A stretch of 64,000 nt of DNA from an uncultured Actinomycetota bacterium (GCA_963774575.1 CAVZFO010000021.1:7315-71314); one strand, 5' to 3'; shown: positions 8,549 to 61,536, counted from the stretch's first letter. Numbers and translations: made by a program. Notes: generated by a model not told the origin, from the letters alone.

Positions 8549-8590
8549 GTCAGAGGCCCTTTTAACCATGTGGTTAAAAGGGCCTCTGAC
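8549..8590. terminator. Perfect 20-bp inverted repeat downstream of the tRNA (terminator or att-associated)
   Basis: GTCAGAGGCCCTTTTAACCA-TG-TGGTTAAAAGGGCCTCTGAC. Confidence 0.7.
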
Positions 8591-8606
8591 CTGCGGTTTC
8601 ACTTTG

Positions 8607-8680
8607 TAGCGGGGGCAGGATTTGAACCTGCGACCTCTGGGTTATGAGCCCAGCGAGCTACCGAGCTGCTCCACCCCGCG
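8607..8680 (-). tRNA. tRNA-Met(CAT), initiator type
   Basis: CGCGGGGTGGAGCAGCTCGGTAGCTCGCTGGGCTCATAACCCAGAGGTCGCAGGTTCAAATCCTGCCCCCGCTA. C1:72 mismatch, three G-C pairs in the anticodon stem, no encoded CCA. Confidence 0.97.
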
Positions 8681-18836: not shown

Positions 18837-18931
18837 TCGTCCACAGGCCGGGCCGTCCCGAGGCTACCTGTCCACCGCTCCTGCACCGCCGTACCCGGGT
18901 TGTCCACAGAGTTATCCACAGGCTGTCCACA
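18837..18931 (+). promoter_or_regulatory. Cluster of DnaA-box-like 9-mers
   Basis: TTGTCCACA 18900, TTATCCACA 18912, CTGTCCACA 18923; weaker TCGTCCACA 18837 and CTGTCCACC 18868. Confidence 0.7.
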
Positions 18932-18994
18932 GGCGACGGCCGGTCACCCCCGCCGCGTTGACCCCGTCGCCGCGCCGCCTCCTAGCGTGGCGCG

Positions 18995-49082: not shown

Positions 49083-50996
49083 CTAGGCCAGCAGGTCGAC
49101 CTCCGCGTGCGCGGCGCCGCCGGCGAGCCGGGCGTAGCCGGGGCCACGGTCGAAGAAGGCCTCGCTCGGGGCGGGACGGCCGGCACGTTCGGCGGTGGTC
49201 GCGTCGGCGTCGTACCCGAGTGAGTCGTCGTCGAGCGAGCCGGTGAGCACCACGCCGTACGCCGCGAGCGCGGCCTCCGGGGACACCTTGCGCCAGACGA
49301 CGTCACGGACCACGAGCGCGGGGTCGCGGGCGAGCGGGTCGCCCCAGCCGCCGCCGCCCGTGGTGCGGATCCGGATCACCTCGCCGGCCCGGACGGGCTC
49401 GGCGTCGGCGAGGGCGTCGACCCGGCGCTCGGCCGGTCCGCCGGGGTCGATGGTGACCTGGAACGGCTGCCCCGCGAGGCCGCCCTTCACGCCCCAGCAG
49501 GCCAGGATCGACCGGTCGGCGATGGACATGAAGTGCGCGTCCTTGAGCATCCGGACGTGCTTCTCGTACCCCAGCCCACCGCGGTACTCCCCCGCGCCGC
49601 CGGAGTCCATCGCCAGGCCGAGCGACTCGACCCGGAACGGGAACCGGGCCTCGGTGAACTCCGTCGGCAGGTTCCGCGAGTCCGGCACCACGTGGATGGT
49701 GTCCTCGCCGTCGGCGTAGTAGCGGCCGCCGGAGCCGCCGCCGAGCACCTCGCGCATCAGGTAGGGGCGGCCGTCGAGGTCGTCGCCGTAGACGCCGGTG
49801 TAGCGGATCGTCTCCTGGTCGGCCGGCATCCGTCCGTCGACGGCCTTGGCGACCACGCCGGCGAGCACGCCGAGCAGCCGGAGGATCACGAACGTGCGGG
49901 CGTTGGTGGGGCCCGGGAAGACGGGCGTCAGCAGGGTGCCGGGCTCGGGGAAGCGCATCTCGATCAGCGGCACGATGCCCTCGTTGACGTCGAGCTCGGC
50001 CATCCGCTCGGGGGTCTCGGCGAGGTTGCGCAGGATCGGCGCCAGCCACTTCTTGAGGAACACGCCGTCGCTGTAGTCACCGCAGTGGTTGATCGGCCCC
50101 TTGGCCTGCGGCCCGGTGCCGTCGAAGTCGAGGATCAGCCGCTCCCCGTCGGGATCGTCGGGCGCCGTTCGCGTCAGGGTGATCCGCTGGGTGTGCAGCA
50201 TCGGCTCGTCGACGCCGTCGTGCTCGGCGTAGTCCTCCCACACCCACGAGCCGACGGGGATCTGGGAGAGGATCTCGCGGCGGTACGTCGTGGTGGTGCG
50301 GTCGATGATCGCGTCGAAGCACGACTCGACCGTCTCGACGCCGTAGCGGTCGAACAGCTCGCCCAGCCGCTGGGCACCCATCAGGCAGGCCGAGCACTCC
50401 GCGTCGAGGTCGGCGGCCAGGCTCTCCGGCATCCGGGAGTTACGGGTCATGATCGACAGCGCGGCCCGGTTGGGCACGCCGGCGTCCCACAGCCGGATGG
50501 GCGGGACCATCAGGCCCTCCTCGAAGACGCTGGTCGCGTGGCTCGGCATCGAGCCCGGCACCGCGCCGCCGATGTCGTCGTGGTGGCCGAAGGCCTGGAC
50601 GAAGGCGACGACCTTTCCTCCGCTGAACACCGGGACCGTGACGCACAGGTCGGGCAGGTGCCCGATCCCGCCCTCGGAGCGGTAGACGTCGTTGTGGAAG
50701 AACACGTCGCCCTCGCGCATCTGGTCGATCGGGAAGTCCCGGGCGACGGGGTGCACGAGCGCGGAGTACGAGCGGCCGGTGAGCTTGCGCAGCAGCCGGT
50801 CGTGGATGCCCGCGCGGAAGTCGTGGGCGTCGCGGATCATCGGGCTGCGGGAGGTACGCGCGATGGCCGTCTCGACCTCCATCTCCACGCTGGCCAGGGA
50901 GCCCTGCACGATCTCCACGAGCACCGGGTCGGCGCTCGCCCCCGCGTCCGCGGTCAGCGGGCCGAACGGGAACTGGGTCGGTGCGCGGCGGCTCAT
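49083..50996 (-). CDS. Hydantoinase B / 5-oxoprolinase family subunit
   Basis: DPVLVEIV..EMEVETAIARTSRSPMIRDAHD, NDVY..GHLPD, HHDDIGG.VPGSMP, EEGL, GGAGEYRGG, TTGGGGWGDP. Confidence 0.93.
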   Translation of the reverse strand: MSRRAPTQFPFGPLTADAGASADPVLVEIVQGSLASVEMEVETAIARTSRSPMIRDAHDFRAGIHDRLLRKLTGRSYSALVHPVARDFPIDQMREGDVFFHNDVYRSEGGIGHLPDLCVTVPVFSGGKVVAFVQAFGHHDDIGGAVPGSMPSHATSVFEEGLMVPPIRLWDAGVPNRAALSIMTRNSRMPESLAADLDAECSACLMGAQRLGELFDRYGVETVESCFDAIIDRTTTTYRREILSQIPVGSWVWEDYAEHDGVDEPMLHTQRITLTRTAPDDPDGERLILDFDGTGPQAKGPINHCGDYSDGVFLKKWLAPILRNLAETPERMAELDVNEGIVPLIEMRFPEPGTLLTPVFPGPTNARTFVILRLLGVLAGVVAKAVDGRMPADQETIRYTGVYGDDLDGRPYLMREVLGGGSGGRYYADGEDTIHVVPDSRNLPTEFTEARFPFRVESLGLAMDSGGAGEYRGGLGYEKHVRMLKDAHFMSIADRSILACWGVKGGLAGQPFQVTIDPGGPAERRVDALADAEPVRAGEVIRIRTTGGGGWGDPLARDPALVVRDVVWRKVSPEAALAAYGVVLTGSLDDDSLGYDADATTAERAGRPAPSEAFFDRGPGYARLAGGAAHAEVDLLA

Positions 50997-53160
50997 GCCT
51001 CGCTCCCTGCTGGCTGTCGGGTCACGATGAGGTTGAGGTACTCGTCCACGCGGACCTCGAACCCCGGGTGGATCGGCACCGTCGACCCGAACTCCTCGAC
51101 GATCACCGGGCCCGTGATGCTCGTGCCCGGGCGCGAGGTCGGTGCGCGGGACGACCGGGGTGTCGACGTAGCCGGCCTCGGCGTCGAAGCAGACGGGCCG
51201 CCTCACCGGGTCTCGTGACGGTCGCTGGCGCGACCTCCTCGACCAGCGGTGCTTCGCCGCTGGTCGAGGACGGCTCGCCTGTCGCGAGACCCGGCGACTC
51301 GACCGCCGATGAACGGATCTCAGGCCGGGTGATCGGCCCGATGCCGGACACCCGCAGGTTCACCCACTCGACCTGCTGGCTGGGATCGCCGGCGAAGTCG
51401 TAGCCGTAGAGGACCCGGTGCTCGGCGTGGAACGTGGCGGCCACCGCCTCCAACGCGGCGGCGTCGAGGTCGCCCTCCGGGACCGGCACCCGGACCTCGA
51501 AGGCCTGCCCGAAGTAGCGCAGGTCGGCGGTGCGAACGAACACGTGCTGCTCGGGTGCGAAGCCCTCCGTGGCCAGCGCGTCGGCCGCCTGCAGGGTCAG
51601 GGCGTCGTACGTCGCCGTGACGACGCCCGGGGACGAGGCGGTCGGCGAGCGAGACGTGGGTCTGCACGTAGTCGTTCTTGACGTCGACCGTGAGCAGCCC
51701 GAACGCCGAGACGTTGCCGGGGTTGGGCGGGACCAGCACCGTCGGGATGCCGAGGACGTCCATCAGCCGGCACAGCAGCAGCGAGCCCGAGCCGCCGAAC
51801 GTCGTCAAGGTGAAGTCGCGGACGTCGAGGCCGCGCTTGACGGTGACCTGGCGCAGCGCGTTGGCCTGGTTCCACGCGGAGATCTCGAGGATGCCGGTGG
51901 CGCAGGCCTCCGGGCTGAGGCCGAGCTTGCCGGCCAGCGCCTCGACGCCCGCGCGGGCCGCGTCGACATCGAGCGGGATCTCGCCGCCGAGCAGGTGGGG
52001 TGGGATCCGGCCGAGGACGACGTGGGCGTCGGTGATGGTCACCTCGCTGCCGCCCTTGCCGTAGCAGAGGGGGCCGGGGTCGGCGCCGGCCGACTGCGGT
52101 CCGACCTTGAGCGTGCCCTCCGGCGACAGCCAGGCGATCGAGCCCCCACCGGCGCCGACGGTGACCACGTCGATCATCGGGATCTTGGAGGGGTACGCGC
52201 CGACCGAGCCCTCGGTGGTCAGCGTGGGCTCCCCGTCGATCACCACGCTCACGTCGGTGGAGGTGCCGCCACCGTCGCTGGTGAGCACCCGGTCGAAGCC
52301 CGCGACCCGGGCGATCAGCGCGGCGCCGAGCGCCCCGGCCGCCGGGCCGGACAGCACCGTGGTGATCGGCTGGTGCACCACCTCGTCGGCCGAGAGCACG
52401 CCGCCGTTGGACTTCATCACGTAGAAGGGGACGCGTCGCTCCCCGCGTAGGCCGCCAGCCGGCCCTTGATGTTGGTGACGTACGCCGAGAGCCGCGGCTT
52501 GACGGCCGCGTCGACGAGGGTGGTCATCGCCCGCTCGTACTCGCGGTACTCCCGGAGCACCTGGCTCGACAGCGACACCACGGCGTCGGGGTGCTCCTCG
52601 GCGAGCACGGCGCGCATCCGCTCCTCGTGCTCGGGGTTGGCGTAGGCGTGCAGGAAGCAGACGCCGAGGGTGGCGATGCCCTGGTCGCGGAACCACCGCG
52701 CCACGACCCGAGCGCCGTCCTCGTCGAAGGGCCGCACCTCGGCGCCGGTGAAGTCGAGTCGGCCGCCGACGCCCTTGACCAGGTGCCGCGGCACGATCCG
52801 GTCCGGCTTGACCCAGAAGTAGGAGTTGCCGTAGCCGTCGGGCACCGACTGACGGGCGATCTCGAGCATCGCCTCGTAACCCTCGGTGGTGACGTAGCCC
52901 AGGGCGTCGACCTTGCCCTCGAGCAGCTGGTTGGTGGCCACGGTGGTGCCGTGGCTGACCGCGCTGATCGCGTCACCGTCGCCCTCGGGCAGGCCCAGCA
53001 GGCCGAGGACCTTGTCGATGCCGGCCATGAAGCCGTCGGCCGGGTTGCCCGGCGTCGACGGCGTCTTGGTGGTGACCAGCTCGCCGGAGTCCTCGTCGAA
53101 GGCCACGACGTCGGTGAAGGTGCCACCGGTGTCGATGCCGATGCGGATCCTGCGGGTCAT
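50993..53160 (-). CDS. Hydantoinase A / 5-oxoprolinase family ATP-binding subunit (frameshifted)
   Basis: IGIDTGGTFTD, HGTTVATN, REYER, SGPAAG, DGGGTSTD, VGAGGGSI, GPQSAGADPGP, SAFG. Confidence 0.93.
51206..51294. repeat. REP-doublet-like long inverted repeat inside the hydantoinase A CDS
   Basis: CCGGGTCTCGTGAC..TCCTCGACCAGCGG-TGCTTCG-CCGCTGGTCGAGGA..GTCGCGAGACCCGG. Confidence 0.75.
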
Positions 53161-53243
53161 GGCGCCAGTCTCGCCCGACCCGATGGGGGCGGCGACGGCT
53201 AAACCTGCCCAGTGAGACGTCGTACGTTGGCGAGAGTCGCCGG

Positions 53244-53912
53244 TCAGGCGTCGTTGGCCCGGTCGTTGTAGACGCCGGCGGCCTCCTGGCCCGAGAGCGC
53301 CTGGATCGCGGCCATGATCTCGTCGGTCACCTCACGGCGCGCCCGGCCGAGCGGGACGCCGTCGCCGCGGCCGGTGAAGTCGAGGGGCTCGCCGAACGAG
53401 ATGGTGACGCGGGCGATCTTGGGGTACTTCGTCCCGACCGGCTGGATCTTGTCGGTGTCCTTGAGCCCGACAGGCACGACGGGGACCCCGGCGGTCAGGG
53501 CGAGGTGGGCGACGCCGGTGCGGCCGCGGTAGAGGCGGCCGTCGCGCGAGCGGCTGCCCTCGGGGTAGATGCCGAAGGCCTCCCCGTTGCCGAGCACCTC
53601 GAGCGCCGTCTCGAGGCTGTCGATCGCGGCCTGGGTGTCGTCGCGGTCGACCGGCAGCATGCCGAGGCCCTCGAACCAGAGGCGCTGCAGCGTGCCCCGG
53701 ATGCCGTGCCCGGTGAAGTAGTCGGACTTGGCGAGGAAGGCGACGTTGCGGGGCGCCACCACCGGGATGACGACGCTGTCGAAGAAGCTGAGGTGGTTGC
53801 TGGCCAGCAGCACCCCGCCGGTGCGGGGGACGTGCTCGATGCCGAGCACCCGGGGGCGCCACACCGCCTTGGCCAGCGGGGGGACGACCCGTTGGATCAC
53901 GTCGAAGAGCAC
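53244..53912 (-). CDS. Lysophospholipid acyltransferase (PlsC family)
   Basis: SNHLSFFD, FLAKSDYF, IYPEGSRSRDG. Confidence 0.92.
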   Translation of the reverse strand: MLFDVIQRVVPPLAKAVWRPRVLGIEHVPRTGGVLLASNHLSFFDSVVIPVVAPRNVAFLAKSDYFTGHGIRGTLQRLWFEGLGMLPVDRDDTQAAIDSLETALEVLGNGEAFGIYPEGSRSRDGRLYRGRTGVAHLALTAGVPVVPVGLKDTDKIQPVGTKYPKIARVTISFGEPLDFTGRGDGVPLGRARREVTDEIMAAIQALSGQEAAGVYNDRANDA

Positions 53913-53965
53913 CGGCCTATTGTGACGCGCCCACTGGCGGGCCCTCTCGGCCGGTCGGGTGCCGG

Positions 53966-54865
53966 TCACGGATGGGGCCAGAGGACGTCGGCGCGGCTGT
54001 AGTGGCCGGCGACGTCGAACCACCGCTTGGCGTGCAGCGTCTCGCGCAGGTCGCAGTCGGCCACCACGATCCCCTCGGCGTCGTACAGCGGGCCGCCGAT
54101 CACGTCCCCGGACCCGGGCGCCACGACCGCCGCGCCCCCGCGGCCGAAGACGTCGTGGTCGGGCAGCGGCCAGGGGAAGTCGTCGGGGAACGCGGTCCGC
54201 GGGATGTACTGCGGCACCGAGACGACGTACGCGCCCGCCTCGATGGCGATGTGCCGGACCGTCGCCAGCCAGCCGTCGGAGTCGTCGGCCGTCGGCGCCA
54301 CCCAGATCTGCGGGCCGCCCTGGTAGACCGCCCAGCGCGCCAGCGGCATCCGGTTCTCCCAACAGATCAGCCCTCCGATCCGGCCGAGCCGGGTCGCGGT
54401 CACGGCCAGGTCGTCGCCGGCTCCGACGCCGTGGAAGAGCCGCTCGTGGAAGGTCGGCATCAGCTTGCGGTGCCGCGACAGCACGCCCTCGGGTCCGAGG
54501 AGCAGTAGCGAGTTGTAGAGGGTGCCGGGTCGCTCGTCCTCGCGCTCGTTGACGCCGATCGCGCAGTAGACGTCGTGCTCGCGGCAGGCGTCGACGAGCG
54601 TGGCGACCTCGGGTCCGCCGACGTCGACCGAGCTCCCCCAGAAGCGCTCCCAGAACTCGTCGGCCTGCGATCCGGAGGGCGACAGGTGGGCCCACGCGTA
54701 CGACGGGTAGACCGACAGGAAGGTCTCGGGGAAGACCACGAGCTGCGCGCCCTGGCCGGCGGCCTCGGCGACCAGGCGGACCGCCTTGGCGACGCTGGCG
54801 TCGAGGTCGAGGACCACCGGGGTCGCTTGGACGGCGGCCACGCGGACCAGGGGCAGCTCGGTCAT
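53966..54865 (-). CDS. Nitrilase / carbon-nitrogen hydrolase
   Basis: E-K-C triad: FPETF, HRKLMPT, ICWEN; DVAGHYSR. Confidence 0.92.
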   Translation of the reverse strand: MTELPLVRVAAVQATPVVLDLDASVAKAVRLVAEAAGQGAQLVVFPETFLSVYPSYAWAHLSPSGSQADEFWERFWGSSVDVGGPEVATLVDACREHDVYCAIGVNEREDERPGTLYNSLLLLGPEGVLSRHRKLMPTFHERLFHGVGAGDDLAVTATRLGRIGGLICWENRMPLARWAVYQGGPQIWVAPTADDSDGWLATVRHIAIEAGAYVVSVPQYIPRTAFPDDFPWPLPDHDVFGRGGAAVVAPGSGDVIGGPLYDAEGIVVADCDLRETLHAKRWFDVAGHYSRADVLWPHP

Positions 54866-54884
54866 CTCCGCAGGCTAGTGCCGG

Positions 54885-55075
54885 AAATAGGTGAAGGGCT
54901 CTCGTGAGTATGAGTCACAAGAGCCCTTCAGGTTGACCGGTACCGGTGACGCTTCCGATCGATCGTCCTTCGTGCTCGGTCCCAGCAGCTTCGTCACCCT
55001 GCTGCCGCCTCGGGTTGCCCCGCGGTGTGGACCTTCGCCTTCCGGCCGATCCCGCTCTTCCCGGAGGAAGTGCGT
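54885..55075 (-). ncRNA. Candidate structured ncRNA, copy A (family not recognised)
   Basis: Conserved with copy B: tetraloop hairpins with compensatory changes, GGUGAC/GUCACC pseudoknot, 3' hairpin + U-rich tail, own promoter. Confidence 0.75.
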
Positions 55076-55081
55076 AGGAGA

Positions 55082-55231
55082 GTTCTATGTCCTGCGCCAC
55101 CACCCGCGCAAGAGGAATCCCCAAGAAACACGGGGAAATCTCGCCGTCGGGCGTGTCGTCCACAGGAGCGGGTACGTCGTCCACAGGCGACGGGCGCTGC
55201 TCCACAGGTCGGGCGCCCCGGCTGTGGACTC
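55082..55231 (-). promoter_or_regulatory. Promoter and phased TCCACA array of ncRNA A
   Basis: TTGCGC-N18-TAGAAC; boxes at 55156, 55177 and 55198, inverted box at 55223. Confidence 0.65.
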
Positions 55232-55929
55232 AGCGCACGGCGACGACGTCGCCGACGGCGAGCGAGCCGGGGTCGACCACGTCGGCGTACACGGCGACGC
55301 AGAGCTCCCGACCGGAGGCCAGCGCCTTCAGCCACGGGGTGGTGGTGGCGACCCCGTCCTGGGCCAGGTCGATGGTGCGGCAACGCTCCACGCGCTCGAC
55401 GACGGAGAGGCGGACGTCACCGATCGCGACCTCGTGGCCGACCCAGCCCTCCTCCTCGAACGGCTCGGCCGTCTCGACGATCACGTTGGTGCGCAGCCGC
55501 CGTCGGTCGGCGTCGACGCCGAGCTCGCGGGCACACCACTCGAGGGTCGCGGTGCCGACGAGCGAGACCGCACCGGCGTCGAAGTGCGACGTGCCGTTCT
55601 CCAGGAGCACCTGGACGGCGTCGCCGAAACGCCCGGACAGCTCCTCGTCGAGCGGCGCGCTGCCGGCGGTCCACCCGTCCTTCCCGTCGGCCTCGTGCGC
55701 GAGTGACGCGGACGGTCCCGTCGGCGGCGGTCGTGGCGCCGTAGCGGAAGACCTCGTCGCGGCGGCGGAACCGTCGGCTGTCCTTGCCGGCCGCGAACCG
55801 CCCGTCGCCGTCGACGACGGCGTAGGCCCGGTCGCCGACGAGACCGCGGGGGTCGACGTCGACGCGGTCGAGGGCCTCCCCGGCCATCGACTTCACGGGG
55901 TAGCGGCGGATCTCGAGGACGGTGGGCAC
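55230..55929 (-). CDS. MOSC domain protein (one frameshift)
   Basis: IRRYPVKSMAGE...GLVGDRAYA...RRLRTNVIV...ERCRTI...GSLAVGD. Confidence 0.88.
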
Positions 55930-56090
55930 CGATCCAGGCTAGACGCCGCTGCTCCGAGGATCTCGAGACGGTTCCGCGGATCTCGGAGACGCGTCGCGCG
56001 TCCGGCGCTGGCGCGCCGGCCGCGCCGAGCGCTCCTCGATCTCCTCGCCCCACGCCGACCCGTCGCTGCGCTCCGGCTCGGCGGGCTCGG

Positions 56091-56272
56091 AAAAAGGTGA
56101 AGGGCCCCGGCAGTATGAGTGCCAGGGCCCTTCGTTGACCGCCGTGGTGACCCGACGATCGCCTCGCTCCAGATCGGGCCCCGGTCCAGATGTCACCCTC
56201 GGACCGCAGCGGCCGAAGCCGCCGTGTGAACCCTCACCTTCGTGAGACCCGAACCTCCCGAAGGAAGTTCGT
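56091..56272 (-). ncRNA. Candidate structured ncRNA, copy B
   Basis: Same architecture as copy A, with two C(UUCG)G loops and a CCUUUUU tail. Confidence 0.75.
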
Positions 56273-56279
56273 GAGGAGA

Positions 56280-56419
56280 GTTCTATGCGGTCGCGGCGGG
56301 GGTGCGCAAGAGGGAATCCCCAACTATTTCGGGCAATTCTCCGTCCTCCACAACCTTCGGCGTGTCGTCCACAGGATGCGGGCACTCCTCCACAGCCGGG
56401 ACCGCCTACCTGTGGAAGA
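56280..56419 (-). promoter_or_regulatory. Promoter and phased TCCACA array of ncRNA B
   Basis: TTGCGC-N18-TAGAAC; boxes at 56344, 56365 and 56386, inverted box at 56411. Confidence 0.65.
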
Positions 56420-57806
56420 TCAGGCGGTTCCGAGGGCCTCGAACGCGGCCGCGATCTCGAGCAGCCGGCGGTCGGCACCGTGCGGCGCGACGAGCTGGAC
56501 GCCGACGGGCAGGCCGTCGGCCGTCGTACCCGCGGGGACCGAGATGGCCGGACAGCCGGTGACGGTGATCAGGTACGCCGAGCGCATCCAGTCCAGGTAC
56601 GTCGCCATCGGCCGGCCGTTGATGTCGGCGGGGTACTCCTGGTCGGCCGGGAACGGCGGCACCTGGCTGGTGGGCAGCAGCAGCACGTCGTACCGGTCGA
56701 AGAACTGGCGCGCGGTCTCACCGACGGTGGTGAGCTGCTCGTACGCGCGGGCCACGTCGGCGCCGGTGAGCCCCTCGCCCGCCCGGATGTTGTCCGCCAG
56801 CGACGGCTTGAACTCGTCGGGGTGCTCGGCGAGCAGGTCGCGGAAGCCGGCCTGGAAGGTCCACGCCCGCAGGGTCCGGAAGGTGTCCTCGGCCAGGCTC
56901 AGGTCCGGCTGGTCGGCTGCGACGTGGGCGCCGGCGGCGGCCATCGCGCGGCCGGCCGCCTCGACGACGGAGGCCACCTCGGTGTCCACGTCGACGAGCC
57001 CGGCGAGGTCGGGGGACACGCGCCACGCGCAGCCCGGCCAGGCTGCCCACGACGGGCGGTGCGAAGGCCGAGCCCGGGTCGCCGAGCGCGAGCGGCACCC
57101 GCGGGTCGGGGCCCGCGATCACCGACAGCAGCAGGGCGAGGTCGCCGACGTTGCGGGCGAGCGGCCCGGAGATGCCGAGCGCCTCCCAGTGGTTCTCGTT
57201 CGGCCAGGCAGGCACCCGGCCGCGACTCGGCCGCAGCCCGACCACGCCGCAGAACGACGCGGGGTTGCGCAGCGAGCCGCCCATGTCGGAGCCGTCGGCC
57301 AGCGGCACCATCCCGGCTGCGAGCGCGCACGCCGCTCCCCCGCTCGAGCCGCCGGCGCTCCGCGTCGGGTCGACCGGGTTGAGGGTGGTCCCGAAGACCC
57401 GGTTGAACGTGTGGCTGCCGGCGGCGAACTCCGGCACGTTGGTCTTCCCGATCGGCACCGCCCCGGCCCGCCGGATCCGCGCGACGACGAGGTCGTCGTG
57501 GTCGGGGACGTTGTCGGCCAACAAGCGGCGAGCCGTACGTCGTGCGCCACCCCGCCACGTCGTGGGTGTCCTTGAAGGCCCACGGCAGCCCGTGCAACGG
57601 GCCGCGCTCGTCGTACGGCGTCCGGTCGGCCTCGCTCGCCCCGTCCCGGGCCCGCTCCTCGTCGAGGGAGACGATGGCGTTGAGCTCGGGGTTCCGCTCG
57701 GCGATCCGGGCGAGGTGCAGGTCCATCAGCTCGGAGCACGAGATCTCGCGCGTGCCGATCGCCGCCACCATCTCCCGGGCCGTCGAGTCGTGGTCAGGTC
57801 GGTCAT
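56420..57806 (-). CDS. Amidase-signature family amidase (frameshifted)
   Basis: GPLHGLPWAFKD, GKTNVPEF, GGSSGG, GSDMGGSLRNPASFCG, GLPVGVQL. Confidence 0.92.
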
Positions 57807-57815
57807 GCGCGGGAA

Positions 57816-57892
57816 CTTCGGCGTCGTTCCTGTCCCTGTGGCGTCGTTGCAACGACGCCGAACGTCCGGGATACCCGCTCGAGCGGGTATCC
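57816..57892 (-). repeat. Palindromic intergenic repeat, family X copy 3 (inverted)
   Basis: Reverse complement is nearly identical to 38364-38441. Confidence 0.8.
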
Positions 57893-57903
57893 CGACCCCA
57901 CGC

Positions 57904-58538
57904 TCACCGCCGCCGCCCGAACAGGGAGCCGGCGACGACGCCGAGGAGGACCAGGCCGGCGCCGACGGCGATGCCCTTGAGGAACTCGGCGGACGACGAG
58001 ACCGCGGGTGCCGGGGGTGCGGTGAAGACCTGGCCGACGACGGGGGCGGCCGCAGGCGGCCGCGTCGACGGAGCCCGAGCCGGCGACGGCGGGCAGGCCG
58101 CCGGAGAGGGTGCGGTCCACGTTGCCGAAGAACTCGCCCGCCATCCGCTTCGAGACCGAGGTCAGCATCCGCTGGCCGACCCCGCCGATCATCCCGCCGA
58201 CGACCGCGTCGGCGTCCCAGGTGACCTGCGTGGTGCCGTCCTCGACGAGCGGCGAACCCGACGTTGACGGTCGCGCCGATGGTGCCCGGGGCGCCCGTGC
58301 CGTCGAGCTTCATCACCAGCGACGAGGGCTCCTGCAGGTCCGACAGCACGCAGGTGCCGGCGTACGTGCCCTTGATCGCGGCCACGCCGGCGGTGACGGT
58401 CATGTCGTAGGAGTTCTCCCCCGTCGCGACCAGCCGCTCGCAGCCGGGGATGGTGGCGACCAGCACCGCAGGGTCGAGCAGCGCGTCCCAGGCCTGCGGC
58501 ACGGGCGCGTGCAGGACGTTCTCTCCGGCGATCTTCAT
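57904..58538 (-). CDS. coxG: CoxG/SRPBCC accessory protein with C-terminal TM (frameshifted)
   Basis: WDALLDPAVLVATIPGCE...AAIKGTY...GGMIGGVGQRML...FF. Confidence 0.85.
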
Positions 58539-60950
58539 GGCGTCTCCCCGATCTGTGAGTGGTGCGAGAGGCGAAGCGCGTAGAGCTCGGACGGCGAGAT
58601 CGGCATCGCGGTGATCGTGAAGCCCTCGGCATCGGAGATGGCGGCGGCGAACACCGCCGCCGACGGGATCACGCCGGCCTCGCCGGCGCCCTTGATGCCG
58701 AGCGGGTTGAGCGGCGACGGGGTCTCCAGGTGGTCGATCTCGATCGACCGTCGGGCACCTCGGTGACGTAGGGCATCAGGAAGTCCATGAACGACGCGTT
58801 GAGCAGCTGCCCGGACTCGTCGTAGGCCATCCGCTCGTACAGCGCCCCACCCACGCCCTGGGCCACCCCGCCGTGGATCTGGCCCTCGACGATCATCGGG
58901 TTGATCAGGTGGCCGCAGTCGTGGACCACGGCGTAGCGCAGGATCCTGATCTCGGCGGTCTGCGGGTCGGTCTCCACGATCACGGCGTGCATGCCGGAGG
59001 CGAACGTCGCCCTCTCCGGCGAGTAGAAGTCCTTGCCCTCCAGCCCCGGCTCGTCGCCCTCGGCCACGGGCGGCTTGCCCGGGTCGCCGACCGAGAACTG
59101 GGTCGCCATCTTGGACTGCTCGTCGAAGGCGTAGCGCAGCGGGTTGGAGAGCACCGCCACCGTGCCGAGGGCGATCGAGGCGTCCGGGGCGCCGCGCACC
59201 GACACCACGCCGTCGACGATCTCGAGGTCGTCGGGCGACGCCTCGAGGGCGTCGGCGGCGATCCGCAGCACCTTCTCGCGGGCCCGCGTCGCCGCGAGGT
59301 GGATCGCCGACCCGCTCATCACGGCCGCGCGCGAGGCGAAGGTGCCGACGGCGTACGGCATCCGCCGGGTGTCGCCGGTGACCACCTCGACGTCCTCGAA
59401 GAGGGACGCCGAGCACGTCGGCGACCAGCTGCGCGAAGACGGTCGCGTGGCCCTGGCCCTGGGTGGTCAGGCCGGTCGCCACCTTGACCTTGCCGGTGGT
59501 CTCGATGTGCACGTGGGCGCCCTCGTAGGGCCCGACGCCGGTGCCCTCGACGTAGCAGGCGAGCCCGATGCCGACCCGCCGTCCCTGCGCGGCCATCTCG
59601 GCCTGGAAGGCCGGGAACTCGTCCCAGCCGATCAGCGCCTTGATCTTGTCCAGCGACGCCGGGTAGTCGCCGGAGTCGTACTCCAGCTCGCGGCCGTCCT
59701 GGAAGACCAGGCCGTGGTCGTAGGGGAACTCGTCGGGCTGGATGAAGTTCGCCGCGCGCACCTCGGCGCGGTCCTTGCCGAGGTACTCCGCGATCGCGTC
59801 CATGGTCCGCTCCATCACGAAGCAGCCCTGCGGCCGGCCGGCGCCGCGGTAGGGCGTCACGATCACGGTGTTGGTGTAGAGCGAGTCGAAGACCACCCGG
59901 TAGGCGCCCGGCTTGTAGGGCCCGAGCAGCTGGGTCGAGGTGATGATCGGGACGATCAGGCCGTACGGCGTGTAGGCGCCGTGGTCGTGCCAGAACCGCA
60001 CGTCCAGGCCCAGCAGCCGGCCGTCGTCGTCGAAGCCGACCTCGACGTGGTGCACCTGGCCGCGCTCGTGGGCCGAGGAGATGAAGTGCTCGCGCCGGTC
60101 CTCGATGAACTTGACCGGCCGGCCCAGCGCCCGGGCCGCCAGCGGCACCAGCAGCTCCTCGGGCCAGGGGTGGTTGATCTTCACGCCGAACCCGCCGCCC
60201 ACGTCGGGGGTGATCACGTCGACCTGGCCGAGGTCCAGGCCGAGCTTGACGGCGACGGCGGCCCGCACGCCGGTCGAGGTCTGGGTCGAGGACCAGACCG
60301 TCAGCCGGTTGACGTCGGGGTCCCAGCGCGCGACGATGCCGCGGCCCTCCATGGGCTGGCACGCGCTGCGCTCGACGGTCAGGTCGAGGGTCGAGCGTGT
60401 GCGGGGCCGCGGCGATGGCCGCCGGGGCGTCGCCGTTGCTGCTGCTCCATCCGGGCGCCGACGTTGCCGGGCACGTCCTCGTGCACCAGGTTCGCGCGCG
60501 GCCCGGGCCGCCTCGATGCCGACGACGGGCGGGAGCACCTCGTAGTCGACCCGGATCCGGCCGACGGCGTCCTCGGCGACGTAGCGGTCGTCGGCCACCA
60601 CGAAGGCGATGGCCTCGCCGGCGTAGTTCACCTCGCCGTTGGCCAGGGCGTACTGCGTGCGGCCGTGCGTCAGCGTCGGGTGCGGGATCAGCAGCGGCAG
60701 CGGGTCGGCCATCGGCGCCGACAGGTCGGCCAGGTCCTCGTAGGTCCACACCGCGTGCACGCCCTCGACGTCGAGCACGCGTCGACGTGCACGTCGAGCA
60801 CCTTGGCGTGCGCGTGCGGTGAGCGGAGCACCGCGGCGTGCAGCGTGTTCGGCGCCGACCGCGACGTCGTCGACGTACCTGCCCGTTGCCGCGCAGGAAC
60901 CGCTGGTCCTCGACCCGCTGCACCCGCGCCCCGAACAGCTTGGTCGTCAT
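58535..60950 (-). CDS. Xanthine-oxidase-family molybdenum hydroxylase, large subunit (frameshifted)
   Basis: RVEDQRFL, RSPHAHA, VGGGFGVK, PYRGAGRPQ, GQGHAT, GTFASR, GQIHGGVAQG, KGAGEAG. Confidence 0.92.
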
Positions 60951-61536
60951 GCGCCCAACCCCGTCGACGCGTTGTCGTCGGTGCGGTCCTCGAACTCGAG
61001 CTGACCGTCGTGCTCTCCGCTGGTCGAGGGGCTCGCTCGCGCGTCTCGAGACCCAGTGACCGGAGCTCGGCCGCCCGCAGCACCGACTTCACGATGTTCT
61101 GGTAGCCGGTGCAGCGGCACAGGTTGCCGGCGATCATGTCGCGCGCCTCGTCCTCGGTCGGGCGTGCGGGTTGTCCTCGAGCCCGGCGGTGATGGTGGTC
61201 AGGAAGCCCGGCGTGCAGAACCCGCACTGGAGGCCGTGGCACTCGAGGAACGCCTGCTGCACCGGGCCCGAGCGACCCGTCGGCGTTGGTCAGCCCCTCG
61301 ACGGTGGTGATCTCGCAGTCGACCGCGGACACCGCGAACATCAGGCACGACCGCATCGGCCGGCCGTCGACGAGCACCGTGCAGGCGCCGCAGACGCCGT
61401 GCTCGCAGCCGACGTGGGTGCCGGTCAGGCCGAGGTCGTGGCGCAGCGCGTCGGAGAGCAGCCGCCGGGCGGGTACGGCGACGTCGTGCGCGACGCCGTT
61501 GACGTGCAGGCGGACGTCGTGGAGCGGCTCGCTCAC
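60947..61536 (-). CDS. Mo-hydroxylase 2Fe-2S small subunit (frameshifted)
   Basis: GCEHGVCGACTV..SCL, QCGFCTPG, NLCRCTGY. Confidence 0.92.

Follow-up and report, generated by a model that had tools for sequence, protein, structure and literature searches.

What are the two intergenic segments that lie on either side of a MOSC-domain gene in the genome of an uncultured Actinomycetota bacterium? The window, a 64,000-nucleotide (nt) stretch of DNA (GCA_963774575.1 CAVZFO010000021.1:7315-71314), had received an initial annotation from its sequence, in which these segments, here called A and B, were read as twin, diverged genes for a structured RNA of no recognised family. Almost certainly they belong to a real, stand-alone, structured RNA family outside Rfam. 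As to what this RNA may do, the reading we favour, at a probability of roughly 0.3, is that each segment is a DnaA-controlled RNA gene whose 3′ hairpin would act as a tRNA-anticodon decoy for an anticodon-reading protein; it is ranked ahead of RNA polymerase (RNAP) binding, base pairing, a DNA-level DnaA site, a scaffold, and a mobile or cis element. The first reading of the locus overlooked a DnaA-box-like array, the conserved anticodon-like loop, and the spread of the family through the class. A re-reading of the window sequence located both segments on the minus strand, with the following features (bp, base pairs).

54889..55075, minus strand: RNA copy A, 187 nt, with P1, a long P2 closing a three-way junction (P3, P4), P5 and P6
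54893..54929, minus strand: terminal hairpin P6 of A, 15 bp, loop CUCAUAC at 54908-54914 (alignment, covariation)
54945..54998, minus strand: kissing helix of A, 7 bp, P4 loop GGUGACG (54992-54998) with P5 loop CGUCACC (54945-54951)
55082..55111, minus strand: predicted sigma-A-type promoter of A, TTGCGC-N18-TAGAAC, +1 at 55075 (sequence, family conservation, contig end)
55150..55231, minus strand: box array of A, four DnaA-box-like 9-mers and GACAC (predicted sites, sequence); 55223-55231 inverted, then 55198-55206, 55177-55185 and 55156-55164 at 21-bp steps, GACAC at 55153-55157
55230..55929, minus strand: MOSC-domain gene between A and B in two frames, MOSC_N in 55417-55929 and MOSC in 55230-55610
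56095..56272, minus strand: RNA copy B, 178 nt, architecture as in A, 5′ end predicted from the promoter
56099..56133, minus strand: P6 of B, loop CUCAUAC at 56113-56119
56146..56197, minus strand: kissing helix of B, 6 bp, 56192-56197 with 56146-56151
56280..56309, minus strand: predicted promoter of B, TTGCGC-N18-TAGAAC (sequence)
56344..56419, minus strand: box array of B, four DnaA-box-like 9-mers and GACAC (predicted sites, sequence); 56411-56419 inverted, then 56386-56394, 56365-56373 and 56344-56352

The two copies are 69% identical over 329 nt, about 150 nt of which lie upstream of the RNA. Both fold better than any of 200 shuffles (z −5.26 for A and −5.79 for B), and the folding energies favour the minus over the plus strand (−91.3 versus −82.1 and −99.7 versus −78.6 kcal/mol). 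P1, P3, P4, the GGUGAC/GUCACC pairing and the 3′ hairpin are present as claimed, and TTGCGC-N18-TAGAAC occurs just twice in the 4.1-Mb assembly, in A and in B. The U-rich tail needs toning down: U enrichment is no more than mild, and the terminator scan called B but not A. A and B are real paralogues, but a pair they are not: a hidden Markov model of the two finds a third copy (E 3e-14) on contig C8 (G000:C8:99422-99545), between pxpA-like (LamB/YcsF) and pxpB-like (CT_C_D) genes, and a covariance model (the 3′ 123 positions, 66 sequences) finds exactly three copies in this genome, whose assembly is 74% complete.

Compact members fold into a 5′ hairpin, P1, starting at +2, followed by P2, a long stem that contains a purine-rich internal loop and closes the three-way junction from which P3 and P4 branch, a P5 whose loop kisses the P4 loop, and finally the 15-bp P6. 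Over 63 named pairs in 41 full-length compact members, picked from 72, 92.1% of the cells are standard pairs, and 46 pairs show two-sided changes, compared with a mean of 27.2 in shuffles (0 of 500 as high) and 18–24 in slid alignments, both controls ignoring the relatedness among sequences. Each of the nine helices tested, the kissing helix included, has at least two pairs that change on both sides, so that compensatory changes among homologues are found throughout; in 66 3′ halves, picked from about 100, the kissing helix is paired in 96% of the cells and five of its seven pairs show two-sided changes. Two helices had to be redrawn. The sequence of the proposed local P2 hairpin is present, but the segment pairs better with a downstream segment in all 41 homologues, just 17 of which can form a local hairpin of −2 kcal/mol or better, and the long-range P2 helix shows two-sided changes in eight of its eight pairs; P5, given as CCGA..UCGG, is conserved instead as GAUCGG/CCGGUC and bears the GUCACC loop.

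The description of A and B as independently transcribed paralogous RNAs under structural selection is thus supported by covariation in all helices and by a promoter and a terminal hairpin in each copy, and it is further backed by downstream genes that vary in identity and direction and by stretches identical to both copies in the RNA libraries of three studies. Twenty RNA runs share 5–14% of the words of positions 54300-56900, and four of these were mapped to the window. Contigs on A and B with identical stretches of 86 and 134 nt (run X3), 82 and 87 nt (X6), and 83 and 118 nt (X8) were recovered, one run from each study. In X3, two contigs run into adapter after position 55077; as the genome agrees there with the first two letters of the adapter, the insert ends at 55075, in agreement with the predicted +1 of A. 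At the other end, a single contig for each copy has adapter before 54888 and 56095, so that the 3′ ends fall at 54889 and 56095, in both cases immediately past P6 at ...UUCACCU; these ends come from one run and few contigs, and fragment ends may coincide by chance. The coding flanks have no cover in X3, X6 and X8, and X1 shows the reverse (low on coding sequence, none on the RNAs); since lack of cover by contigs proves nothing and their depth does not rank genes, neither this pattern nor the depth at the Ms1-syntenic locus is used as evidence.

No catalogued family accounts for the RNA. Scanned against Rfam 15, positions 50000-61000 of the window gave two weak matches far below threshold, and among 38 loci of many body types, together with the Ms1-syntenic locus of the genome, no member reached the gathering threshold, the only match to do so being a neighbouring tRNA. 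ARAGORN called neither A nor B as a tRNA. The claim of an unrecognised family therefore survives, as does the remark that the gene context differs from that of Ms1, since an Ms1-syntenic RNA lies elsewhere in the genome. None of the outcomes that the initial annotation had named as refuting its reading was observed. Several readings of single parts were dropped as well: the UUCACCU tail varies freely among homologues, which removes both an anti-Shine-Dalgarno function and a CCA-end or minihelix; a small protein gene starting from the GUG in the kissing loop is rejected by the distance from kissing loop to terminal loop, which falls in the three frames 33, 32 and 28 times; a CsrB/RsmZ-type sponge is disfavoured by the occurrence of the RNA in 28 of 40 CsrA-positive and 40 of 60 CsrA-negative congeners (Fisher p 0.83, related genomes not being independent); and a Y RNA of the YrlA type by the presence of its partner Rsr (TROVE) in 3 of 100 congeners as against 68 of 100 for the RNA.

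Upstream of each RNA lies a conserved promoter cassette. The family promoter reads TTG(C/T)G(C/G)-N17/18-TA(G/C)A(A/C)(A/C), with T as the next base in 149 of 151 cases, and in A and B it is preceded by one inverted and three direct TCCACA-type 9-mers at 21–22-bp steps. Only four clusters of at least three TCCACA exist in the genome, and three of them are at these promoters. With a relaxed pattern, two or more boxes are found in 117 of 127 units with full upstream sequence versus 146 of 20,000 random windows, and box starts peak at intervals of one helical turn, at −42, −53, −64, −75, −85, −96, −107 and −118 relative to the −35 element. The commonest 9-mers, TCGTCCACA, TTCTCCACA and TTGTCCACA, recur in the dnaA-dnaN interval and the dnaA promoter on contig C3. 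The actinomycete DnaA box is given as TT(G/C)TCCACA in PMC4285127, and candidate matches to this consensus, clustered and phased, stand upstream of the family promoters. We consider it probable, from these sequence patterns, that DnaA controls the family promoter. GACAC, the WhiA motif according to PMC10243135, is found upstream in 42 of 88 first-set units, for the most part at −46/−47; among class-wide units the figure is 5 of 50, close to the background of 10%.

The origin of replication, oriC, is situated on the same contig as dnaA, at about 74.3–74.6 kb of C3, between dnaA and dnaN, and at about 80150-80270 (G000:C3) a pair of boxes with GACAC and a palindrome, which we take to resemble parS, adjoins parA. 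Within the window itself, a stand-alone cluster of three closely spaced DnaA-box-like sites, one of them a perfect TTATCCACA, was noticed at about 18900-18935 (G000:C21:26217-26245), between enoyl-CoA hydratase-like and PHP-like genes (labels by eye), with no family RNA after it.

How widely is this RNA distributed? By blastn, relatives are present in 18 of 24 congeners, and the covariance model matches 68 of 100 congeners, with 1–5 matches each (a single long copy can give two overlapping matches), as well as 47 of 149 other genomes sampled from across the class. A 3′-hairpin pattern run over GTDB gave at least 120 loci from 10 of 64 parts and about 810 stretches in all; the titles of the matches include Nocardioides, Kribbella, Terrabacter, Phycicoccus, Knoellia, Intrasporangium, Ornithinimicrobium, Propionicimonas, Jatrophihabitans, Nanopelagicales and many other Actinomycetota. 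Streptomyces, Mycobacterium and Corynebacterium are named in none of 120 GTDB titles, with a pattern biased to the own genus, and this absence of model genera from the named matches may explain why the family was missed. A stricter phylum-wide hairpin pattern hit 8 of 400 genomes and caught only one of the three own copies, which makes it uninformative. Among five closed congeners without a model match, the pattern of boxes plus promoter gave one match in all, and in 73 genomes, nearly all without a model match, its matches stayed at control level, none of 30 inspected among these 36 being a box array with a terminal hairpin.

Outside the clade of these compact members the body of the RNA is different and variable. 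Most bodies measure 200–450 nt, and the full range runs from about 90 to 815 nt: the smallest member (L187, 91 nt) consists of three hairpins only, with no kissing motif and no long stem, while L032 reaches 815 nt and L233-235 about 700 nt, grown by tandem hairpin repeats. The kissing motif is found in 93 of 110 units of the first set versus 9 of 50 of the class-wide set. GNRA-capped hairpins are frequent in the 160 units (GCAA 136, GCGA 64, GAGA 57, GUGA 50). Constant across the class are the promoter cassette, a 5′ hairpin, and P6. The long bodies of 580–815 nt (L233-L238, L032, L043) are built from tandem GNRA-capped hairpin units of 30–40 nt, and at two loci (L042 and L065) two family copies lie close together and point in opposite directions.

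The loop of P6 is CUCAUAC in 134 of 143 box-bearing units, a share that is inflated because most loci come from loop-dependent searches. The pair closing it is A-U in 78, G-C in 58, U-A in 12 and C-G in 3 of 151 cases; four types of closing pair around a fixed loop mean that the stem varies and the loop does not. All three CAU tRNAs of the genome carry the loop CUCAUAA, from which CUCAUAC departs by a single base; CUCAUAC is also the sole 7-nt loop found three times among 110 long hairpins genome-wide. Anticodon loops in general follow the pattern Y32-U33-N-N-N-R37. As a control for the search bias, 20 matches of a promoter-only search were picked by eye and fetched: 12 were family members and 8 were not, and the loops of the 12 read CUCAUAC (2), CUCAUGC (4), UGCCUAG (3), CUCGUAC (1) and CUCUUGG (1), one member being cut before the hairpin. 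CUCGUAA, found in L206 and L208 by promoter search, is identical to a tRNA-Thr(CGU) loop of the genome, and CCCUUAC came from weak model matches. The terminal loop is thus not invariant; the seven forms all keep Y at position 1, C at 3, U at 5 and R at 6, with the first and last of these agreeing with Y32 and R37 of tRNAs. We lean toward the 3′ loop being the working part of the RNA.

Some further hairpins resemble P6. At L185:247-790 a member is transcribed away from a tRNA(CAU) gene, and the anticodon arm of this tRNA nearly equals the top of the RNA's 3′ hairpin. Isolated CUCAUAC 3′ hairpins with no promoter match nearby (L003:785-836 and a second hairpin in L159) may be what is left of lost copies, or the ends of long members that went unrecognised. 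In the window, a perfect 19-bp hairpin (8549-8590, minus strand) directly follows a tRNA(CAT) gene (8606-8680); its stem base, GAGGCCC, resembles P6, which suggests that this sequence is a general terminator style, and the hairpin may mark an integration site.

Under the decoy reading, DnaA would bind the in-phase boxes 40–120 bp upstream of the −35 element, and the position of the boxes and the non-consensus last base of the −10 element make activation more likely than repression. The paired 5′ and 3′ ends and the kissing-loop core would stabilise the RNA and serve as a scaffold, and the loop, Y-U-C-A-U-R-C, would look like a CAU-tRNA anticodon loop to a protein for which the sequence of the stem does not matter. 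CAU loops are read by MetRS, by the lysidine synthetase TilS and by VapC-type nucleases; candidate readers here are MetRS, TilS or an anticodon nuclease. Titrating or protecting such a partner, the RNA would tie the status of replication initiation to translation. In favour of this reading, the 15-bp 3′ hairpin with its 7-nt loop is retained in members whose bodies measure anything from about 90 to about 815 nt, and box array, promoter, RNA and terminal hairpin form a self-contained unit. The broadest version, taken as one joint claim, is more doubtful: a class-wide, DnaA-switched decoy in which loading of an oriC-like array would yield a stable RNA with a free CAU loop as its only fixed feature, the loop capturing MetRS, TilS or an anticodon nuclease and so coupling chromosome replication to translation.

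Several observations weigh against a decoy. The variants CCCUUAC and UGCCUAG break the U33 turn, and the middle base of the would-be anticodon takes all four letters (CAU, CGU, CUU, CCU), so that no single synthetase would read all forms; within one family, four different loops occur. The loop also matches the YUNR motif of antisense RNAs, which makes RNA pairing possible. Binding of initiator tRNA in the P site depends on three G-C pairs, and mimicry of this tRNA or of a P-site ligand was rejected since GGG/CCC stands below the loop in 0 of 160 units. Absence of a match from 32 of 100 congeners, closed genomes among them, implies a dispensable function, the boxes number fewer than two in 10 of 127 units, and the flanking frames scanned encode no consistent or recurring partner protein. 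Finally, the RNA contigs give neither strand nor level and hence record presence, not abundance.

The best-surviving alternative, which we nevertheless hold to be unlikely, is an RNAP-binding RNA like Ms1, 6S or CoRP that would store or sequester RNAP under DnaA control. Synteny with a HAD-IB hydrolase gene defines Ms1, which PMC9130861 predicts in Nocardioides; CpaE/Ssd, oxidoreductase or Fic genes are its other neighbours. In this genome the Ms1-syntenic RNA (G000:C15:335600-335850; L024:1040-1250, minus strand) occupies the interval between the HAD-IB gene and the next gene downstream, with Ssd/CpaE likewise beside it, and is a different RNA from the family. The only intergenic promoters of the exact type in the genome are those of the three family copies and this locus, and the compact form, with its long irregular stem, purine-rich internal loop and 5′ and 3′ hairpins, is loosely like Ms1 as PMC9130861 presents it; further classes of RNAP-binding RNAs are expected by PMC11077062. 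The same paper, however, assigns one type of abundant RNAP-binding RNA to each species, and the Ms1-syntenic RNA, single-copy in 93 of 100 congeners, is present in 67 of the 68 carriers of the family. Moreover, the long stem is absent from the 91-nt member and rearranged across the class, and the family model (R1) has no match to the Ms1-syntenic RNA at E up to 10. RF02566 found no match in the own genome, which is a weak test as it missed the syntenic candidate too. Outright identity with Ms1 was rejected on the separate syntenic locus, the other sequence, the other neighbours and the lack of an R1 match.

Less likely again is a base-pairing small RNA whose U-turn loop would seed pairing with mRNAs (e.g., at AUG-AG starts) or with another RNA. 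Besides the fit of CUCA to YUNR, the loop changes from A to G at positions 4 and 6 and from C to U at position 1 would keep wobble pairing, and some of the 19 non-self GTATGAG sites of the genome lie at probable starts, one of them of a ClpB-like gene (label by eye). These 19 sites, however, form no coherent set in a target search of the own genome. Many actinobacterial mRNAs are leaderless, and several of the sites look so, in which case the GU before the AUG would not be transcribed; the starts of dnaA and dnaN are GUG. Four loops in one family would need a covarying target, and the seed cannot extend into the 15-bp GC-rich stem.

It is improbable that the DNA is the working part, as a DnaA-titrating or regulating site like datA or the DnaA-box clusters of Streptomyces, with transcription supplying supercoiling and the RNA being secondary or feeding back on DnaA. 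Such a site would fit the helically phased arrays, the tandem amplification of the whole unit and the 1–5 copies per genome, and datA is helped by neighbouring transcription; yet most boxes are degenerate, there are only about four per unit, and compensatory changes in nine helices and the conserved loop would be left unexplained. Slightly more improbable is a self-assembling scaffold in the manner of the large ornate RNAs OLE, ROOL and GOLLD, with GNRA hairpins and kissing loops joining multimers. The many GNRA-capped hairpins and the growth of bodies by tandem repeats agree with it, and a near-invariant kissing sequence common to paralogues could pair between molecules; against it stand the drop of the kissing motif from the first to the class-wide set and its loss from the smallest member.

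A mobile repeat of the kind of miniature inverted-repeat transposable elements (MITE) or repetitive extragenic palindromes (REP), or a riboswitch or other cis-regulatory leader of the downstream gene, would suit the unrelated neighbours across the class and the patchy presence, but this very improbable reading is already largely refuted, since there are three copies here and 1–5 in congeners rather than the dozens of scattered copies that would have marked a MITE or REP, two stable loci in the genus, no transposase family among 171 flanking frames scanned, none of the family in IMG/VR (pattern scan), INPHARED phages or PLSDB plasmids (blastn), and a downstream frame, belonging to unrelated Pfam families, on the opposite strand in 35 of 91 loci (frames by a codon-bias heuristic).

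Around A and B in the window, an amidase gene lies upstream of B, the MOSC gene separates the two copies, and A is followed downstream by genes for a nitrilase, an acyltransferase and a hydantoinase. Two loci recur in the genus, one with acyltransferase/hydantoinase genes downstream and often an amidase gene upstream, the other at pxpA-pxpB or facing dinB; class-wide, the neighbours come from unrelated Pfam families. That the two RNA genes flank MOSC was right as to position, but this gene is a passenger that sits between two copies of a duplicated unit, because tandem copies about 360–480 bp apart are common in congeners, too close to hold it. The MOSC (55417-55929 with 55230-55610), amidase (56420-57852) and molybdenum-hydroxylase (58535-60950) genes are each split over frames; frameshifts are frequent across the assembly and may be sequencing errors.

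What emerges is a conserved, multicopy, structured RNA gene in about one-third of the sampled actinomycete genomes and about two-thirds of the sampled Nocardioides, which are common soil bacteria. Natural variation narrows its candidate working part to seven nucleotides. Control by the replication initiator is not known for any actinobacterial small RNA; we found no paper on a DnaA-box-controlled small RNA in actinobacteria and nothing on an RNA of the present kind in a search of mainly freely accessible articles; a supplementary list (e.g., the Ms1 candidate tables of PMC9130861) may hold an earlier mention. If the decoy reading is true, this would be regulatory RNA of a new kind, linking replication directly to translation in bacteria.

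Among known systems, Ms1 (MTS2823, scr3559; RF02566) is likewise a stand-alone actinobacterial RNA, of 200–300 nt, with short hairpins at both ends, and the Ms1-syntenic locus of this genome shares the promoter type of the family; that locus, in contrast, is single-copy by the HAD-IB gene and lacks a box cluster and a CUCAUAC hairpin, whereas the family is multicopy, has no fixed neighbour and possesses a kissing-loop core. CoRP and scr0792 resemble it as intergenic actinobacterial RNAs that homology searches miss. CoRP, according to PMC11077062, measures 516 nt, is confined to Corynebacterium and is flanked by tRNA-Gln/Glu genes, and scr0792 of Streptomyces is about 85 nt long. The family differs from CoRP in length, range and tRNA synteny, a distinction drawn from the published descriptions; ARAGORN found six tRNA genes in five member loci, none for Gln or Glu, and CoRP was rejected on this missing synteny. 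With 6S RNA the family has in common a length of about 180–200 nt, an own promoter and an irregular long stem in the compact form. It differs by having no Rfam match, a branched and pseudoknotted structure without the central-bubble rod, and a ninefold variation in body length; 6S was set aside on the branched kissing-loop fold given by covariation and on the three short hairpins of the smallest member.

The anticodon arm of a CAU tRNA (Met/Ile2) has the same 7-nt loop size and six of seven bases equal, while the family has no cloverleaf, no ARAGORN call, a 15-bp stem and no conserved CCA end. The known bacterial tRNA mimics (tmRNA, YrlA Y RNAs) imitate the acceptor end or the elbow and are not known to copy the anticodon loop. 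For the upstream part of the unit, examples of a DnaA-regulated promoter and of a DnaA-box cluster are provided by sda of B. subtilis and datA of E. coli, respectively, with which the family shares phased DnaA-box-like 9-mers upstream of a promoter and away from oriC, and from which it differs in that its transcript is a structured non-coding RNA.

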